A stretch of 64,000 bases of DNA from Bacteroidales bacterium (GTDB lineage: Bacteria; Bacteroidota; Bacteroidia; Bacteroidales; UBA1715): the NCBI GenBank assembly GCA_045599365.1, contig JAZRVS010000129.1:1684-65683 (forward strand), in the 5' to 3' direction. The notes below the pieces were generated by a model, which was not told where the DNA came from, ran no database searches, and was given only the letters and a program-made list of their open reading frames with translations. Made by a program: the position numbers and the translations under genes. Every line of letters starts with the position of its first letter. Position 1 is the stretch's first letter. Below, one piece after another: positions 348-23,503 of this stretch.

Positions 348-743
348 ATGATTAAATATAAAAACTTTATAATCACTGATGTTTTAAAAGGTGTTTCAAA
401 GAACCAGTGTGATTTATTCACACGAGAACACGTCAAACACGACTTGGAAATAGAAATAATTGATAATTTAGGAAACAGTTTTATTTTTGAAACAACCTTT
501 CAATTCAACCCTAAATATTATAAATTCAAGAAAAACGACGGCTTGCAAGCTGTTATTTTGGACGCATTAGCTTTTGGCAATACGAGAAACTATGAGGATT
601 TTTGCACTTGTTTCGGATATGAAAGAGAAGAGGAAAAGAGTTATTCAATTTATAGAGCTTGCGAAAAGGCTTATAATTTTTTCAGAATAGCAGATTTAAG
701 TTTAGAAGATTTAAATAAATTAGCAGATTTATTAGATAGATAA
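348..743 (+). CDS. hypothetical early protein
   Basis: ORF with AAGGAG RBS 8 nt upstream. First gene after P1. No motif recognised. Confidence 0.6.
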   Translation: MIKYKNFIITDVLKGVSKNQCDLFTREHVKHDLEIEIIDNLGNSFIFETTFQFNPKYYKFKKNDGLQAVILDALAFGNTRNYEDFCTCFGYEREEEKSYSIYRACEKAYNFFRIADLSLEDLNKLADLLDR

Positions 744-2865: not shown

Positions 2866-3089
2866 CTTGGGAAGAGTTATGCGAAAAGGCAAGAGAACTT
2901 GGGTATTGTCTTCATGAAGATGATTTGTTTGACGCACTAGATGGATATGGAAAAGTTTGTTATTTGGAAAAGAGAAACGGAGGCGTTTCGTTTTATGAAA
3001 AAGGAGGTATAGAAACAAATTTTGAAGTATTTGCCGAAAACAGAACTTATGAACAGATGTATGCAATAATGAAAGCATTGGAGGGATAA
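2862..3089 (+). CDS. hypothetical protein, TWEEL...RTYEQMY family (paralog 1)
   Basis: GGGAGG RBS before ATG 2862. MTWEELCEKARELGY...RTYEQMYAIMKALEG is paralogous to the C-terminal half of ORF 3090. Confidence 0.6.
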   Translation: MTWEELCEKARELGYCLHEDDLFDALDGYGKVCYLEKRNGGVSFYEKGGIETNFEVFAENRTYEQMYAIMKALEG

Positions 3090-3524
3090 ATGACAATTAA
3101 AGAAATTGAAATGTTAAGAGAAGAAAATATAAAACTTGCAGAAAAAATTGAAATTTCAAGAGATGCTGTTAGAACACTTAAAGAACAGTGTGATTATTGG
3201 TATTATATAGCAACAAAAGAAAACAATAAGTTAAAATACGAACACTCTCCGTTTTCGTGTTTTAAATGGTTTGGGAAAAAACTTAAAATTAAAACTCCAA
3301 TGACTTGGGAACGACTTGTTGAAAAAGCAGAAAAGATTGGTTACAGGCTCGTTTGTACAATGAACGAAGAACTTTTAGCCAAAGAATATGAAATAGGAAA
3401 ACACCTTGTGTTTAGAAAAAACGGAAAGTTTGAAATTATTTTTCCAGCTCGTTTTCAAGAAACGATATTAAAAGAAAGAACATACGAACAGATGTACGAA
3501 ATTATAAAAGAATTGGAGGATTAA
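3090..3524 (+). CDS. hypothetical protein, coiled-coil N-terminus plus TWERL...RTYEQMY domain (paralog 2)
   Basis: The C-terminal half MTWERLVEKAEKIGY...RTYEQMYEIIKELED matches the whole of ORF 2862. Confidence 0.6.
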   Translation: MTIKEIEMLREENIKLAEKIEISRDAVRTLKEQCDYWYYIATKENNKLKYEHSPFSCFKWFGKKLKIKTPMTWERLVEKAEKIGYRLVCTMNEELLAKEYEIGKHLVFRKNGKFEIIFPARFQETILKERTYEQMYEIIKELED

Positions 3525-17320: not shown

Positions 17321-17349
17321 TTGACAAGTGTTTCAAAAAATTATATATT
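17321..17349 (+). promoter_or_regulatory. sigma70-type promoter of the polymerase operon
   Basis: TTGACA 17321-17326, 17-nt spacer, TATATT 17344-17349. Confidence 0.6.
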
Positions 17350-17469: not shown

Positions 17470-17844
17470 ATGTTTAGCGAAGTAAAATCAAAGTTTGATA
17501 TTGCCGACATAAAACGTAAGGTATATCGGTTATCTCGTTTTCCAGCAGATGTTGGAATTCATAAAGATTGTACTATATGTGAGTTTGATTTAATCGGTGA
17601 TTATGCAATTTCTGTTGTGTTTAGGAACACAGAAGAAAAAGTCATTTCAAAAAGATTTCCTATGACAAAACTAGAAGATTTTTATGCGTTTTCAAGAAGT
17701 GTTGGTGTTACAATACAATTTGAAACGTTTGAAAGTTTTTCAAATGAAATTGAGAAAGCAAAAGAAATTTTAAAATTATTTGTTTTTGATGTTTATTGTG
17801 TTGATTGGGATATGATGGTTTTATCAAGGAGGATTAAATGCTAG
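17470..17844 (+). CDS. hypothetical protein
   Basis: First ORF after the leader. It overlaps the polymerase start. Confidence 0.55.
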   Translation: MFSEVKSKFDIADIKRKVYRLSRFPADVGIHKDCTICEFDLIGDYAISVVFRNTEEKVISKRFPMTKLEDFYAFSRSVGVTIQFETFESFSNEIEKAKEILKLFVFDVYCVDWDMMVLSRRIKC

Positions 17845-19598
17845 TATATGACTTTGAAGTATTTAAAGAAGATTGGTTAGTTGTTATTGCAGATTTAGAA
17901 AAAGAAGAAGTGACAACAATAACTAATGACGCTGACAAATTAAGAGCGTTTTATGAATTACATAAACACGATATTTGGATTGGTTTTAATTCAAGAAGTT
18001 ACGACTCGTTTATTTTAAAAGGAATTCTTTGTGGTTACAATCCGTTCAAGATTTCTCAATTCATTATTGAAGACGGAAGAAAAGGCTTTGAGTTTTCAAA
18101 GGAATTCAATCAAATAAAATTTTTAAATTATGATTGTATGACAGGGTTCTTTGGATTAAAAACTTTGGAAGCGTTTATGGGAGATATGATTAAAGAGAGT
18201 GACGTTTCGTTCTTAATTGACAGAAAATTAACTGAAGAAGAACTTGAACAAACAAAGTTTTATTGTGAACACGATGTCAGAGAAACGATTAAAGTTTTTG
18301 CCAACAGGAAAGCAGATTTTGACGCATATCTTTCTATTTTGGAAAAGTTTGATTTACCGATTGAAAATATCAGCAAAACAAAAGCACAATTATCGGCTAT
18401 TGTTTTGGGAGCTAAACGACGTGAGTGTGAAGACGAGTGGGACATTCGCTTACCAGAAACACTTAAAATTGAAAAATACACACACGTTTGCGATTGGTTT
18501 TTGAACGAAGAAAATCACAACGATAACGCAAAGTTGGAAACAGAAATTGATGGCTGTCCACACGTAGTCGCTTGGGGTGGATTACACGGTGCTTTAAATA
18601 GATTTTCTTATAAATGTGAAGATGATGAAGTGCTTGTTATGGCTGACGTTGACCAGCTTTATCCGACAATTATGATTAAATATAATTTGTTGTCACGTGC
18701 AATTACAAAGAAAGATTTGTTTCCGAAAATTTTAGCAATCAGTTTGGAATTGAAAGCAAAAGGTTTGAAAGCACAACGTCTTCCTTATAAAGAAATTTGT
18801 AATATCACTTACGGAGCTATGGGTGACAAGTACAATCCGATGTATGACCCACGAAATAAGAAACTTGTTTGTGTATTTGGTCAGTTGTTGATGATTGACT
18901 TGATTGAGAAAATTGAAGATTTCACGCAGTTAATTCAATCAAACACAGATGGTATTTTAATCAAAGTGAAGAAAGCTGATTTGCCGAGATTGAACGAAGA
19001 AATTGAAAAATGGCAAGATAGGGTAATGCTTCACATGAGTAGTGACGACTATTTGAAAGTTATTCAAAGAGATGTCAATAACTACATTGTCGTTCCGTTT
19101 GGTGAATTGTACGATAAAAAAGGAAAGCCTCGTTGGAAAGCAAAAGGGGCAGTTGTAAAACAGTTGTCAAAATTGGACTATGATTTGCCGATTGTCAACG
19201 AAGCTGTTAAAATGTGGTTTTTAAAAGGAATTCCACCTGAAAAAACGGTGTGGGATTGTGACGAACTGATTAAATTTCAAAACATTTTTAAATTAAGTTC
19301 GGCATATAAAGAAGCACGTATTGGTTGTTCTTTTAGAAAAGAGAAATCAAAAAACGTGTGGAACGAAGACGGAGAAATTTTGAAAGATAAAACTTTTCGG
19401 GTATTTGCTTCGTTAGGAGAAACAGGTGCTTTGTACAAGAAAAAGGACAACAAAAATCCAGAGAAATTTGCTAATTGTCCAGACAACTGTTTCATTGAAA
19501 ACGAATCCATAGTTGGAAAGTCTTGTTCTGAATATCCGTTGTTAGATAAAAATTGGTATGTTGAATTGGCGAATGATAGAATTAGGAAATTTGTGTAA
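17838..19598 (+). CDS. DNA polymerase, family-B-like, with 3'-5' exonuclease domain
   Basis: ExoI VYDFEV, ExoII GFNSRSYDSFIL, ExoIII YCEHDVRET. Motif A DVDQLYPTIM, motif B-like KEICNITYGAMG, motif C-like QSNTDGILI. AAGGAGG RBS. Confidence 0.85.
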   Translation: MLVYDFEVFKEDWLVVIADLEKEEVTTITNDADKLRAFYELHKHDIWIGFNSRSYDSFILKGILCGYNPFKISQFIIEDGRKGFEFSKEFNQIKFLNYDCMTGFFGLKTLEAFMGDMIKESDVSFLIDRKLTEEELEQTKFYCEHDVRETIKVFANRKADFDAYLSILEKFDLPIENISKTKAQLSAIVLGAKRRECEDEWDIRLPETLKIEKYTHVCDWFLNEENHNDNAKLETEIDGCPHVVAWGGLHGALNRFSYKCEDDEVLVMADVDQLYPTIMIKYNLLSRAITKKDLFPKILAISLELKAKGLKAQRLPYKEICNITYGAMGDKYNPMYDPRNKKLVCVFGQLLMIDLIEKIEDFTQLIQSNTDGILIKVKKADLPRLNEEIEKWQDRVMLHMSSDDYLKVIQRDVNNYIVVPFGELYDKKGKPRWKAKGAVVKQLSKLDYDLPIVNEAVKMWFLKGIPPEKTVWDCDELIKFQNIFKLSSAYKEARIGCSFRKEKSKNVWNEDGEILKDKTFRVFASLGETGALYKKKDNKNPEKFANCPDNCFIENESIVGKSCSEYPLLDKNWYVELANDRIRKFV

Positions 19599-20020
19599 TG
19601 GATAAATACGAAAAAGCAGTTTATAATTATTTTAACGAGAAATCTAAATCAAGCGTTTGTTTCAGATTTCAAGATGCATTAGACGCAAGCAAAGCTTCTG
19701 GAGTTATCGGAAAGGGACGCTTGGCGTTTATGAAAAAGAATCCAAGTGATTTGCTTGTTTGTGACAATGGAGATATGTTTTTTGCAGAGGTGAAACACAC
19801 ATCTGGAATTAAGGGAGTTACAAACTCATTGTTTGAAGAACAACGAGTCGCACGAGATAGAGTATTACAATCGAGTGGTAAATATTTTTATTTTATTTAT
19901 TCAACGAACATAAATATGTGGTACAAAGTTCCAGGTGCTTTTATCAGAGATAATCCAAATGCAAAATGGAAAGAATTGGGACAATTTTTAATTGATTATA
20001 TTCCAGCAGTTTATTTATAG
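19598..20020 (+). CDS. PD-(D/E)xK nuclease, RecU/Holliday-junction-resolvase-like
   Basis: DLLVCDNGDMFFAEVKHTSG gives a D...E-x-K core, followed by EEQRVARDRVLQSSGKYFYFIY, as in RecU/PrfA. Confidence 0.6.
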   Translation: MDKYEKAVYNYFNEKSKSSVCFRFQDALDASKASGVIGKGRLAFMKKNPSDLLVCDNGDMFFAEVKHTSGIKGVTNSLFEEQRVARDRVLQSSGKYFYFIYSTNINMWYKVPGAFIRDNPNAKWKELGQFLIDYIPAVYL

Positions 20021-20029
20021 GAGTTTAAA

Positions 20030-20275
20030 ATGAAGTTTATTTTATTTTCGGCAAGTTGGTGTTGCAAGTGTCAATCATTGAAAAGAGAATTAGAAAAACA
20101 TAGCGATATGAAAATAACAAAGTATGATGTTGACGAATGTTCAAACGAAATGCTTGACAAGTACGATGTAAATGAGTTACCATTGTTAATAGCAATTAAA
20201 AACGATAAAGAAGTTGCTCGCTATGATGAACGTGGTGGGAACTTGGACAGTTGGCTAAAGTTTATTGAGTGGTAG
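20030..20275 (+). CDS. thioredoxin-fold protein
   Basis: N-terminal beta-strand then SASWCCKCQ (WCxxC active-site position). 81 aa. Confidence 0.75.
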   Translation: MKFILFSASWCCKCQSLKRELEKHSDMKITKYDVDECSNEMLDKYDVNELPLLIAIKNDKEVARYDERGGNLDSWLKFIEW

Positions 20276-20283
20276 GAGTACAA

Positions 20284-20505
20284 ATGGAATTAAAAGAACA
20301 AATGCTTAAAATCTGTGCAACAGCAGGATTTGAGCCAACTGACAACATTGATAGAATTGTCAGATTAAAAGAACGATTTGGAATTGGGTTACGTTGTCCT
20401 TGTGATAAAGATAATCCAGCACGTTTTTGCATTAGCGAACAATGTGCAAACGATATAAAAAACGACGGTAGATGTCATTGTGGTTGCTACCGTAAAAAGA
20501 GTTAG
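20284..20505 (+). CDS. ferredoxin:thioredoxin reductase catalytic-subunit-like Cys-cluster protein
   Basis: CPCDKDNPARFCISEQCANDIKNDGRCHCGCY has the CPC...C..C...CHC pattern of FTR beta chain. AGGAG RBS before ATG 20284. Confidence 0.6.
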   Translation: MELKEQMLKICATAGFEPTDNIDRIVRLKERFGIGLRCPCDKDNPARFCISEQCANDIKNDGRCHCGCYRKKS

Positions 20506-20637
20506 GAAGGCAAATCCCCCAAATGGCTAGTCGGTGGGTCGTAAGATACAATGCTCAAGGTCTTGTCTTCCTTTGCTTATGCATATTTGCCTTAATTGTA
20601 TCAACACCGACATTTTAAAAGAAAGGAATTTAATGTT

Positions 20638-20820
20638 ATGAAAATGATAGCTATTAAAAAAGGAAACAAAACAACGTATAAGTTTGTGCCAGACGATTAT
20701 GTTGAAGAAGAAGGGGAAACAAAAGACATTCCACAACGTGATTTGACGACAACTGATTGCAACCAGTTGTATTTTGAAATGTCAAAAGAAGATTTTGAGA
20801 AAATATTTAGGAGCATTTAA
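20638..20820 (+). CDS. hypothetical small protein
   Basis: Track ORF 20596 trimmed to ATG 20638 (MKMIAIKKGN...) after AAAGGAA. TAATG-coupled to the SbcD-like gene. Confidence 0.5.
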   Translation: MKMIAIKKGNKTTYKFVPDDYVEEEGETKDIPQRDLTTTDCNQLYFEMSKEDFEKIFRSI

Positions 20821-21710
20821 TGTTAGAAAAAGTAAAGTTGATTGGGGACACGCACTTCGGAAAGGTTTTTAAAACAGGAGTGCCTTACGAAAGACGTGGC
20901 GAAATTGAAGAAAAGTTTTATGAGAAATTTGAAAAAGAGTTAAACGGTTCAGAGGAGTATGTAATTCATCTCGGAGATTTGTTTGACAACGTTGTTGTTT
21001 CTTTTGGAACTATTTTGCGAGTTTATAATCTGATTAAAAATGCAAGTAATTCAAATAAAAGATTTTATTTCATTCGTGGAAATCACGATTCGCAAAGAAA
21101 TAGTTTAGAAACGTCAGCTTTTGATATTTTGTCGGTAATGTTTTTGAACAATTTAAATGTGAATTTTGTTACAGATTATTTTTATATTTCAGATATAAAA
21201 TCACTTCTTATTGGCTGGGATTATCACAACGACAATTCGGAAAAAATTGAAGAAATAATTAAAGAAGAAAAACCAGATTTTGTTTTAGGTCACTTTGACG
21301 AAGTTTTGCCAGATTATTTATTTTCTTATACTGGAAAAGTTTATTCTGGACACATTCATAACGCACACAAATCTGGAAATACAACTTATGTTGGCAGTTT
21401 GTTGCCACTTGCTTTCGGGGAAGAAAGTGACGATTCGCTTATGATGACACTCACGTTAGACGAATTTCTTTCAAAGAGAGAAGATGAAATCAAAGACAAA
21501 CGAATTCGTGTTGTGTTAAAAGAAGGTGAAACTTTGCAAAACGTGAGAAATTGTTTGCAACTCGTTTTACAAAACGTGAAAAAAGAAGAAAATGTAAAAT
21601 TAGATGTTGAAATGGATTCTTTTGATATGCGACAACTTTTCAAAGAAGAATTGCCAGAAGAAATTTTTGAAGAAATGTATAACGAATATGTGGGGTTACT
21701 GGAATGCTAA
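20820..21710 (+). CDS. SbcD/Mre11-like nuclease (calcineurin-like phosphoesterase)
   Basis: Motifs IGDTHFG, HLGDLFD, IRGNHD, GHFD and GHIH in canonical order. Confidence 0.9.
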   Translation: MLEKVKLIGDTHFGKVFKTGVPYERRGEIEEKFYEKFEKELNGSEEYVIHLGDLFDNVVVSFGTILRVYNLIKNASNSNKRFYFIRGNHDSQRNSLETSAFDILSVMFLNNLNVNFVTDYFYISDIKSLLIGWDYHNDNSEKIEEIIKEEKPDFVLGHFDEVLPDYLFSYTGKVYSGHIHNAHKSGNTTYVGSLLPLAFGEESDDSLMMTLTLDEFLSKREDEIKDKRIRVVLKEGETLQNVRNCLQLVLQNVKKEENVKLDVEMDSFDMRQLFKEELPEEIFEEMYNEYVGLLEC

Positions 21711-23503
21711 ATAAATTATCAGTTACAAACGGAGTTAAGGGGAATCTGGATTTAGATTTTCATAAAGGTGTGACAATCATTCAAGGTGAAAACGGCAAAG
21801 GCAAATCATTAGTTCAAGAATACATTAGATTTGCTTTGTTTGGAACAAGTGCTTTACGTGGAAAAGCAAGTGAATATCCAAAACAAATGTCTGTCACATT
21901 GACTTTTACAATAAATGACAATGAACATATCATTAAACGAACATTAAATGATTGTTATTTTGACAACACCGTTGTTGGAACGACAGCTTGTAACAAAGCA
22001 ATTGTTAAATTACTTGGCTATGATTTATCAATTTTTGATATGGGAAATTGTGCTAAACAATTTGAAATTACAAAATTAGGTGAAATGAAACCGACAGAAA
22101 GAAAGCAGGCAGTTGATAAGTTAATTGGCATTGATTGTATTGAAAAACTTGAAAAGAAAGTAAAAGAAAAATTGCAAGCTGTTAACGGAGCTTTGTCAGT
22201 TATCCCTGATATTTTGAGAGAACCACAATTTCCAGAATTAGGATATGTTCCAGAATTAGATATGGAACGAGAATTACGCTTAATCACACAACAAGAAATG
22301 ATGATTTCAGAAATCAATAAAATGAAATCACAGGGTGTTGAAAAATGTGACGAGCCGATTAAACCGAACGGCACTTACGAAAAAGCAGTCCTAAAGAAAA
22401 GTTTATATGACGAATTGAAAAATATCGTTGTTGAAGAAATTTCTGATGAATATAATTCTGCCGAAAAAATTTACGATTTAATTAGCAAACGTCAAGCGTG
22501 GGATAACTTCGGAGAAATCCCAGAAGAGCCTTCAATGACATTAGAAGAAATCTCACAAGAAGAAAAGAAATGGTCAGATTGGAACGCTTGGCAAAATTCA
22601 AAGAAAGCAACTTGTCCCGATTGTGGAAAAGTGTTTTCATTGACAGGTGTTGAAGAATGTGAAAAACCGACTTATGATTTGTCTTATTTGAGAAATCAAA
22701 AAGAGTTAATTCAAAAGTTAGAAAGAATGCCGAAGTTTGAAAAGCCATACGAAACTGTTTCTGAATTAAACAAAAAGCTTTCTGATTTAACAAAGTTTTT
22801 GAATTACAAATCAAAAAAAGAAGAATTAGAAAAACTTGAAGATGAAACTTCGGTTGAAAATTGGGACACATACAACTCTGATTTAATTAAATATAAGAAA
22901 TACTTGGAATTAGAAAATCTTGTAAATGTTTTATTGAATAGCGAACACCCTGCGTTAAACCGAAATCTTTATAATAAATATCAGCAAACGATTTTGGAAA
23001 ATAAAGTAAAACAAGAAAATTATGAAAGAGAATTGTCCGACTACAAAACAAAAATTAAAATAAAAGAAACTTATGAAAAACAGAAAAAGTTATACACAGA
23101 AACTTTGGAAGGGCTTAAACGAATTAAATTACGTGTAAAATCAACGATAACGCCGAGTTTATCACGAGTCGCAAGTGAAATTTCTTCTGATATGACAGAC
23201 GGAGTTGTGTCAAAAGTTGAAATTAGCGAAAGTTTTGAAATAACAGTTAATGGAAAATCAATCGGTTTGCTATCTGGAAGTGAAAAAGCAGTTGCTAATT
23301 TGGCGATTCGTTTAGCATTGGGTCGCATTTTGACACACAAAGTTTTAAACATTTTCATTGGTGACGAAATTGACGCAAGTATGGACGACGAAAGAGCGTT
23401 GCTTGTTTCAAAATCATTACACAAACTTGCTTCACAAATTGACCAAGTTATCTTGATTTCGCATAAAAAAGTTGAAGGCGATTACATTATAACAATTCGT
23501 TAG
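21704..23503 (+). CDS. SbcC/Rad50-like ATPase
   Basis: Walker A GENGKGKS, central CPDCGK zinc-hook-like CxxC within coiled coil, signature LSGSEK, Walker B IFIGDEIDASMD. Confidence 0.9.
   Translation: MLNKLSVTNGVKGNLDLDFHKGVTIIQGENGKGKSLVQEYIRFALFGTSALRGKASEYPKQMSVTLTFTINDNEHIIKRTLNDCYFDNTVVGTTACNKAIVKLLGYDLSIFDMGNCAKQFEITKLGEMKPTERKQAVDKLIGIDCIEKLEKKVKEKLQAVNGALSVIPDILREPQFPELGYVPELDMERELRLITQQEMMISEINKMKSQGVEKCDEPIKPNGTYEKAVLKKSLYDELKNIVVEEISDEYNSAEKIYDLISKRQAWDNFGEIPEEPSMTLEEISQEEKKWSDWNAWQNSKKATCPDCGKVFSLTGVEECEKPTYDLSYLRNQKELIQKLERMPKFEKPYETVSELNKKLSDLTKFLNYKSKKEELEKLEDETSVENWDTYNSDLIKYKKYLELENLVNVLLNSEHPALNRNLYNKYQQTILENKVKQENYERELSDYKTKIKIKETYEKQKKLYTETLEGLKRIKLRVKSTITPSLSRVASEISSDMTDGVVSKVEISESFEITVNGKSIGLLSGSEKAVANLAIRLALGRILTHKVLNIFIGDEIDASMDDERALLVSKSLHKLASQIDQVILISHKKVEGDYIITIR

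Follow-up and report, generated by a model that had tools for sequence, protein, structure and literature searches.

A short thioredoxin and a minimal ferredoxin:thioredoxin reductase-like protein encoded side by side in a phage polymerase operon

Two adjacent genes for small redox-type proteins

The DNA stretch analysed here (the window, 64,000 nucleotides; C129:1684-65683) belongs to a 68,118-bp contig that was binned in a 2.86-Mb Bacteroidales metagenome-assembled genome (MAG). The last 141 bases of the contig repeat the first 141 exactly; the phage assembly is therefore complete and circular, with a length of about 67,977 bp, and does not represent a prophage. Two small neighbouring genes on the plus strand of the window are the subject of this report. 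The first, open reading frame A (ORF-A, 20030..20275), encodes a short thioredoxin (Trx) of 81 residues. The second, ORF-B (ATG at 20284, stop codon ending at 20505), encodes a protein of 73 residues that resembles, by its family alignment, predicted fold and profile alignment, a minimal version of the catalytic domain of ferredoxin:thioredoxin reductase (FTR) and ferredoxin:disulfide reductase (FDR). Both genes had been reported in an earlier reading of the same DNA (the original prediction), and their positions, sizes and strand were confirmed.

The two genes are separated by a gap of 8 nt. The sequence reads as a Shine-Dalgarno (SD) motif AGGAG for ORF-B at 20274..20278, overlapping the ORF-A stop codon TAG (20273-20275), and as an SD motif GGAG for ORF-A at 20020..20023, directly 3' of the stop codon of the preceding resolvase-like gene. 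The overlap of the SD motif with the ORF-A stop codon, together with the 8-nt gap, implies tight translational coupling, and ORF-A and ORF-B are translationally coupled members of one operon. An alternative GTG start of ORF-B at 20269 appears less likely than the ATG at 20284, since the homologues of ORF-B begin at the ATG position.

ORF-A begins MKFILFSASWCCKC and matches the Pfam thioredoxin profile PF00085 with 37.5 bits (E 2.4e-9), above the gathering cut-off of 23.5, as well as the thioredoxin-domain family phrog_22; the assignment of 20030-20275 to the thioredoxins in the original prediction is upheld by this profile comparison. It is the sole Trx match on the phage contig. Dozens of solved thioredoxins in the PDB match ORF-A, with a best single-domain E of about 1e-7. 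Because these alignments start at about Trx residue 25, ORF-A is a short Trx that lacks the first ~22 residues, corresponding to the first β-α unit, of classical Trx. The active site W10-C11-C12-K13-C14 aligns with WCGHC of the solved Trx domains; its C-K dipeptide is unusual, and a fused relative described below (P0034) has WCGKC. The putative cis-proline is P51, where 'NELPLLI' is aligned to 'RGYPTLL' of a PDB Trx domain. Against the NCBIfam model TIGR01068 (bacterial thioredoxin equivalog), ORF-A scored 35.2 bits, below the cut-off of 96.8, and a word-indexed search of a 5.8-billion-protein index returned only ORF-A itself and no close relative. By these comparisons, ORF-A is best described as a divergent short Trx and not as a TrxA orthologue.

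Relationship of ORF-B to the catalytic domain of FTR and FDR

ORF-B carries the motif C38-P-C40-x8-C49-x4-C54-x9-C64-H65-C66-x-C68, whose segment from CPC to CHC (CPC-x8-C-x4-C-x9-CHC, codons 38-66) was located at 20395..20481. The original prediction had given the same order of Cys residues, with spacers of x5 and x10 that are corrected here to x4 and x9. The word-indexed search returned only two relatives of ORF-B. An exhaustive profile search of 1.84 billion representatives yielded 119 representatives of clusters formed at 50% identity at E<1e-3, 50 of them at E<1e-10. The 103 domain sequences of the family alignment were picked by filtering for the Cys pattern, a filter passed by 110 of the 113 representatives that were usable; the only invariant columns of this alignment are six Cys (C38, C40, C49, C54, C64 and C66). 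P39, S51 and G62 are more than 90% conserved and H65 is 86% conserved, while the seventh Cys, C68, is found in only 32% of the 103 members. The Cys pattern of ORF-B is not a product of chance. PHROG matches were found in 4 of the 103 members, all to a single PHROG whose function is not known, the ORF-B family falls under no Pfam DUF, and a scan of viral contigs with one ORF-B subfamily gave no match. In a search of PDB sequences with plain ORF-B, the matches were spurious, consisting of designed helical-repeat proteins aligned through the N-terminal helices only.

One or two N-terminal C4 zinc-ribbon-like modules (C-x2-C…C-x3-C) precede the FTR-like domain in about 13 representatives (P0054, P0062, P0069, P0070, P0076, P0078, P0086, P0096, P0101, P0102 and P0110-P0112; loci L032 and L033). 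These modules may serve for binding, or as a site where electrons enter in the manner of rubredoxin.

In our assessment, ORF-B is very probably related to the FTR/FDR catalytic domain by distant homology. Four independent lines of evidence converge on this view: the predicted fold, Pfam, PDB sequences and profile-profile alignment. The AlphaFold model of ORF-B computed with the 103-sequence alignment has a pLDDT of 96.8 and a pTM of 0.84. In a Foldseek search of the PDB, three matches of this model stood above noise, one to 4tpu (prob 0.99, E 0.023, TMq 0.66) and one to each of the two 7pwe chains (prob 0.96-0.97, TMq 0.66); all other matches have TM values of about 0.25, none above 0.26. An earlier model built from three sequences (pLDDT 77.6) gave the identical top three PDB matches. 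ORF-B is thus predicted by modelling to have an FTRc-type fold, FTRc being the catalytic subunit of FTR. No match to ORF-B was found in the BFVD library of viral structures.

The second line comes from the Pfam family of FTRc, FeThRed_B (PF02943). Plain HMMER comparison of 20284-20505 with this profile, the check that the original prediction had proposed, failed to give a match (none at E≤1; the gathering threshold of 22 bits was not reached). Sub-threshold matches to PF02943 occur in 40 of the 103 relatives, with a best E of 1.7e-4; the highest-scoring of them, P0087, has 20.6 bits against the cut-off of 22, and its match spans positions 22-90 of the 106 in the profile. A weak FeThRed_B match elsewhere in the window (516-662, E 0.06) was rejected as a chance match to an unrelated ORF that has no Cys motifs. 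The third line is that the sole PDB sequence matched by the ORF-B family profile is 7pwe_A, 'Ferredoxin-thioredoxin reductase subunit B', at E 0.82.

For the profile-profile comparison, 120 true FTRc sequences were assembled from genomes and from a homologue search, in which every listed sequence was annotated PF02943; the homologue search was meant to widen the set and gave only sequences about 70% identical. Alignment of the ORF-B family with this set by hhalign (-mact 0.05) covers 82 columns with a score of 30.3 (P 7e-5), and places CPC on CPC, CHC on CHC, and C54 on the second Cys of the central CPC of FTRc. As controls, 150 column-shuffled family alignments scored 11.3±2.4 with a maximum of 21.5, and the reversed alignment scored 22.6. 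A hidden Markov model of a narrow 8-sequence FTRc alignment gave weak matches to the ORF-B family. The FTRc profile itself matches 7bzk and 1dj7 (E 1e-26 to 1e-29), 4tpu (1.9e-10) and 7pwe (3e-4) in the PDB. Thus, FDRs and FTRc belong to one family. The FTR-like assignment of ORF-B, first proposed from a short Cys pattern, is in this way supported beyond that pattern by the fold search, by the sub-threshold FeThRed_B matches and by a profile-profile score above those of all shuffles.

FDRs are Fe-S enzymes related to FTRc, one of which reduces an atypical Methanosarcina Trx (PMC6262447). Two FDRs of solved structure, Methanosarcina acetivorans MA1659 (PDB 4tpu) and the glutaredoxin (Grx)/FDR fusion of Desulfotalea psychrophila (PDB 7pwe), are the best and only structural matches of ORF-B. 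In ORF-B as in FDR, the CPC and C(H/Y)C motifs belong to a helical core of the FTRc type, which for ORF-B is predicted, and there is no variable subunit; as in 7pwe, some members of its family are fused to Trx-fold domains. Unlike FDR, ORF-B has 73 residues instead of 169-196 and is a bare domain with no fused rubredoxin or Grx. Sequence identity between ORF-B and FDR is 17-23%. The ORF-B family is found in phages and gut Alphaproteobacteria, and the activity of ORF-B is a predicted one.

The resemblance to FTRc (PF02943; PDB 1dj7, 2pu9 and 7bzk) extends to the order of the six Cys (CPC … C..C … CHC), the conserved His, and the N-terminal helices before CPC, which align with those of ORF-B. 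In contrast to FTRc proteins of 110-145 residues, ORF-B lacks roughly 25-45 residues after CHC, its distance from CPC to CHC is 4 residues shorter, and it does not come from an oxygenic phototroph. Set beside the six-Cys signature of FTR and FDR, the ORF-B family has six invariant Cys with CPC and CHC, and all of its members carry C-x4-C ('C[IG]SxxC') at the place of the central CxC. The FTR variable subunit (PF02941, FeThRed_A) gave no match at E≤1 in the whole assembly, including the phage contig.

Association of the two genes and their operon

The phage contig contains exactly one redoxin with a W-CxxC motif and one FTR-like ORF, and the two are adjacent. In a set of about 100 genes, two that are each present once would come to lie next to each other by chance in roughly 2% of cases. 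A collinear fusion of the same two domains is found in P0034 (156 residues), which is encoded on another phage contig (L018) after topoisomerase II genes. Residues 7-56 of P0034 share 31% identity with ORF-A (E 7e-7), contain the WCGKC site and match PF00085 (E 9e-4), and residues 86-152 share 41% identity with ORF-B (E 7e-16). This Trx–FTR-like fusion in another phage therefore supports a functional coupling of ORF-A and ORF-B. Additionally, P0108 has a Grx domain (PF00462, 28.2 bits, above the cut-off) in front of its FTR-like domain, an arrangement that mirrors the solved Grx/FDR fusion 7pwe.

The closest relatives of P0034 are P0083 and P0087, with 57-61% identity in the FTR-like domain. 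Their N-terminal domain of about 90 residues is similar in length, has no CxxC and shows no similarity to Trx by BLASTP. It could be a degenerate redoxin domain.

The operon is arranged in the order polymerase, resolvase-like ORF, ORF-A, ORF-B, SbcD and SbcC, all on the plus strand. Its first large gene (17838..19598) encodes a DNA polymerase (phrog_1252, E 8.5e-140) and is followed by a Holliday-junction-resolvase-like (RecU-like) ORF of 140 residues (19598..20020; phrog_843, E 3.7e-6; no Pfam match), so that the polymerase and RecU-like nuclease that the original prediction had placed upstream are indeed present. Downstream of ORF-B are an SbcD-like gene (20820-21710; Metallophos and phrog_100) and an SbcC-like gene (21704-23503; SMC_N and phrog_77). 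The best promoter-like site of the scanned stretch lies upstream of the operon at 17321-17349. The 90-nt gap 3' of ORF-B (20506-20595) contains a 9-bp inverted repeat; it has no Rfam match, its RNA fold is no better than that of shuffled sequences (z-score 0.63), and no convincing plus-strand terminator was found in it.

The polymerase is 42-46% identical to those of Staphylococcus, Bacillus and Paenibacillus phages. In 80 IMG/VR phages with a related polymerase (38-49% identity), the 5 kb on either side of the polymerase contain neither a Trx nor an FTR-like gene. The ORF-A/ORF-B pair therefore represents a lineage-specific acquisition. The genomes of these related-polymerase phages (L034-L113) are mostly about 25-45 kb in size, and none of the replication genes next to the polymerase of the present phage is shared with them at phmmer E<1e-4. 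The polymerase is accordingly a module that moves between genomes otherwise unrelated to each other.

A proposed thiol-redox module and its alternatives

Studies of FTR-type enzymes have dealt with those of chloroplasts, of cyanobacteria and of a small number of archaea and bacteria. To our knowledge, FTR-type enzymes are the only catalysts that turn the one-electron chemistry of ferredoxin into two-electron disulfide reduction by means of an Fe-S cluster. In the FTR structures of Dai and colleagues from 2000, four Cys reportedly ligate the [4Fe-4S] cluster, and CPC and CHC are said each to contribute their second Cys to the redox-active disulfide. Phage redoxins that serve ribonucleotide reductase (RNR), such as the T4 NrdC thioredoxin and NrdH, occur together with phage RNR genes and receive their electrons from glutathione or from NADPH-dependent systems of the host. 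Our literature search found no publication describing FTR-like proteins in phages.

We lean, with modest confidence, towards the view that ORF-A and ORF-B form a thiol-redox module in which ORF-B reduces the phage Trx with host electrons, a host Trx-dependent RNR being the likeliest client. Cluster binding, the electron donor, Trx as the substrate and the client are steps that we infer. The two genes would be transcribed together with phage replication and recombination genes. By alignment with the published FTR structure, ORF-B would hold one [4Fe-4S] cluster on C38, C49, C54 and C64, with a redox-active disulfide C40-C66 beside the cluster and His65 assisting. As in archaeal FDR, the functional form of ORF-B would probably be a homodimer. 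A low-potential carrier of the host (ferredoxin or flavodoxin) would deliver single electrons to ORF-B, which would then reduce the C11/C14 disulfide in the WCCKC site of ORF-A. Reduced ORF-A would in turn reduce a disulfide of its client, most likely the host Trx-dependent RNR during phage DNA synthesis. Taken separately, the parts of this proposal differ in strength: ORF-B is probably an Fe-S disulfide reductase, ORF-A has a slightly better than even chance of being its substrate, and RNR as the actual client is doubtful.

The chain has a parallel in Methanosarcina barkeri, for which electrons have been described to pass from ferredoxin through FDR and an NrdH-like redoxin to the class III RNR, NrdD. 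The transfer of electrons from FDR to this RNR is stated in the title of Wei et al. 2015 (reference 9 of PMC5704485). The phage resembles the M. barkeri chain in pairing an FTR-like Fe-S reductase with a small Trx-fold redoxin in a setting of DNA or DNA-precursor synthesis. Unlike that chain, the phage has no NrdD, so that the client would be a host enzyme, and ORF-A and ORF-B lie in a polymerase/recombination operon rather than in an nrd operon. Compared with T4 NrdC and NrdH, ORF-A is likewise a small phage Trx-fold protein with a CxxC motif amid genes of nucleotide or DNA metabolism; in contrast to those systems, this phage encodes a putative reductase linked to ferredoxin and lacks RNR.

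No ORF with a ferredoxin, rubredoxin or radical-SAM motif was found on the phage contig. Since the phage is without ferredoxin, rubredoxin, the FTR variable subunit and RNR, the host must supply the electron donor as well as the client. The original prediction of a self-contained two-gene thioredoxin-reducing module thus holds for the pairing, which is supported by the 8-nt gap and the Trx–FTR-like fusion, and fails for self-containment.

Several observations weigh against the proposed module. At the level of the protein, ORF-B by itself matched nothing in Pfam, NCBIfam or PHROGs by plain HMMER, and hhalign in its default local mode, run against the narrow 8-sequence FTRc alignment, gave a probability of 27% and aligned the CHC segment only. 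The central CPC of FTR corresponds to C-x4-C in ORF-B, cluster ligation by C49 is an assumption, and the six Cys of ORF-B could bind zinc instead. At the level of the phage, the RNR gene that was not visible in the window proved to be missing from the whole phage contig as well, and the client is a guess. The binning of the contig is also doubtful, given that an SD-like motif precedes 52 of 69 phage ORFs (75%) versus 85 of 1168 ORFs (7%) in the other contigs of the MAG. The phage contig was probably mis-binned and its host is probably not this bacterium, which bears on the types of ferredoxin and RNR that the host would supply. The polymerase has its nearest relatives in phages of Bacillota, and the terminase in phages of Proteobacteria.

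The distribution of the family provides further points against the module. Adjacency to a redoxin is not kept: a Trx-type neighbour within about 2.5 kb was found at none of 18 other family loci, whose neighbours were uninformative, as were Pfam scans of 10 of the 18, and no conserved neighbourhood emerged among them. Any Trx or Grx is present in only 2 of 12 IMG/VR phage records that carry an FTR-like gene, the other 10 having none. The cellular branch of the family comprises 175 loci, mostly from gut and rumen Alphaproteobacteria MAGs, and in 78 of 80 retrieved loci of the alphaproteobacterial branch (L114-L193; match at about 3001-3240) the gene lies directly 3' of rsmG-parA-parB on the same strand.

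These distributions are what would be expected if ORF-B were a genuine FTR/FDR-type reductase of a host redoxin or another disulfide, with the phage Trx independent of it and reduced by host thioredoxin reductase, so that their adjacency would merely reflect clustering of accessory genes. Most family members stand alone, most FTR-like-carrying phage records have neither Trx nor Grx, and the alphaproteobacterial genes after parB have no redoxin nearby. This explanation is nevertheless unlikely: only 8 nt separate ORF-A from ORF-B and their translation signals are coupled, fusions of Trx or Grx to an FTR-like domain occur in the same order as the two genes, and chance would rarely place them together.

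A quite unlikely explanation is that ORF-B keeps the FTR fold and is no reductase, being instead a small metal-binding protein (Zn or Fe-S) that acts structurally, as a sensor or as a regulator when DNA is replicated, recombined or segregated. In its favour, neighbourhoods of DNA metabolism recur around the family, as seen with the polymerase, resolvase and SbcCD here, with topoisomerase II in L018, and in L017, where the gene lies two genes downstream of an ORF that looks SbcD-like from a reading of its sequence. The position directly after rsmG-parA-parB and the N-terminal C4 zinc-ribbons of about 13 members point the same way, and the reductase activity of ORF-B is itself a prediction from sequence and model. 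However, the invariant Cys are exactly the six of FTR, namely four ligands and the disulfide pair, and the catalytic His is 86% conserved, which is hard to explain structurally. Moreover, the fusion partners are Trx and Grx domains, and a gene order conserved inside a single bacterial lineage says little about function.

The T7-style role suggested in the original prediction, in which the phage Trx would assist the polymerase, in processivity or otherwise, in the way that host Trx assists T7 gp5, and ORF-B would be unrelated or would maintain the Trx, found no support and is very improbable, as only the position two genes 3' of the polymerase in the same operon speaks for it, the polymerase is no T7-like family A enzyme (a weak DNA_pol_B signal besides phrog_1252), and the 79 to 80 phages with related polymerases share with this one the polymerase alone.

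Two further sets of observations concern relatives in other genomes. Among phages with an FTR-like gene, four jumbo phages have a full NrdD encoded at another place in their genomes. Two further IMG/VR records of ~40 kb (L023, G202:C1:43133-43231; L024, G203:C1:21571-21669) contain an ORF of 65-68 residues that matches only the C-terminal end of NrdD (positions 530-561 of 562); taken as a glycyl-radical segment, these ORFs would suggest a 'spare part' of the GrcA/YfiD type. In L001 (MT836276.1, 14914-22504; 'UNVERIFIED: Bacteriophage sp.'), the FTR-like gene is also in a par setting, and the ORF translations around it, as read by eye, look like parB, a thermonuclease-like membrane protein, tsaE, an HPr-kinase-like gene and mlaE/mlaF. 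Judged by this gene content, the L001 stretch looks like a bacterial chromosome and not like a phage.

The ORF-B family is absent from Pfam and NCBIfam and nearly absent from PHROGs, yet it occurs in many phages and is conserved on the chromosomes of gut Alphaproteobacteria, where the rsmG-parA-parB operon that keeps the family gene is origin-proximal. A bolder and speculative proposition, to which we give little weight, is that the bare 73-residue protein is a complete and self-sufficient ferredoxin-dependent disulfide reductase of an unannotated C-x4-C family, and that phages and a whole lineage of gut Alphaproteobacteria use such proteins to couple low-potential electrons of ferredoxin to thiol switches of DNA synthesis, replication or segregation, beyond the supply of RNR. 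If ORF-B is a reductase as proposed, it would be among the smallest Fe-S oxidoreductases, and the 73-residue version would provide a minimal model of FTR chemistry, for which the Trx-fused and Grx-fused relatives are ready-made test constructs. Likewise, if the proposed module is correct, phages of anaerobes would import a ferredoxin-linked Trx system that bypasses the NADPH-dependent thioredoxin reductase of the host and could support DNA replication.

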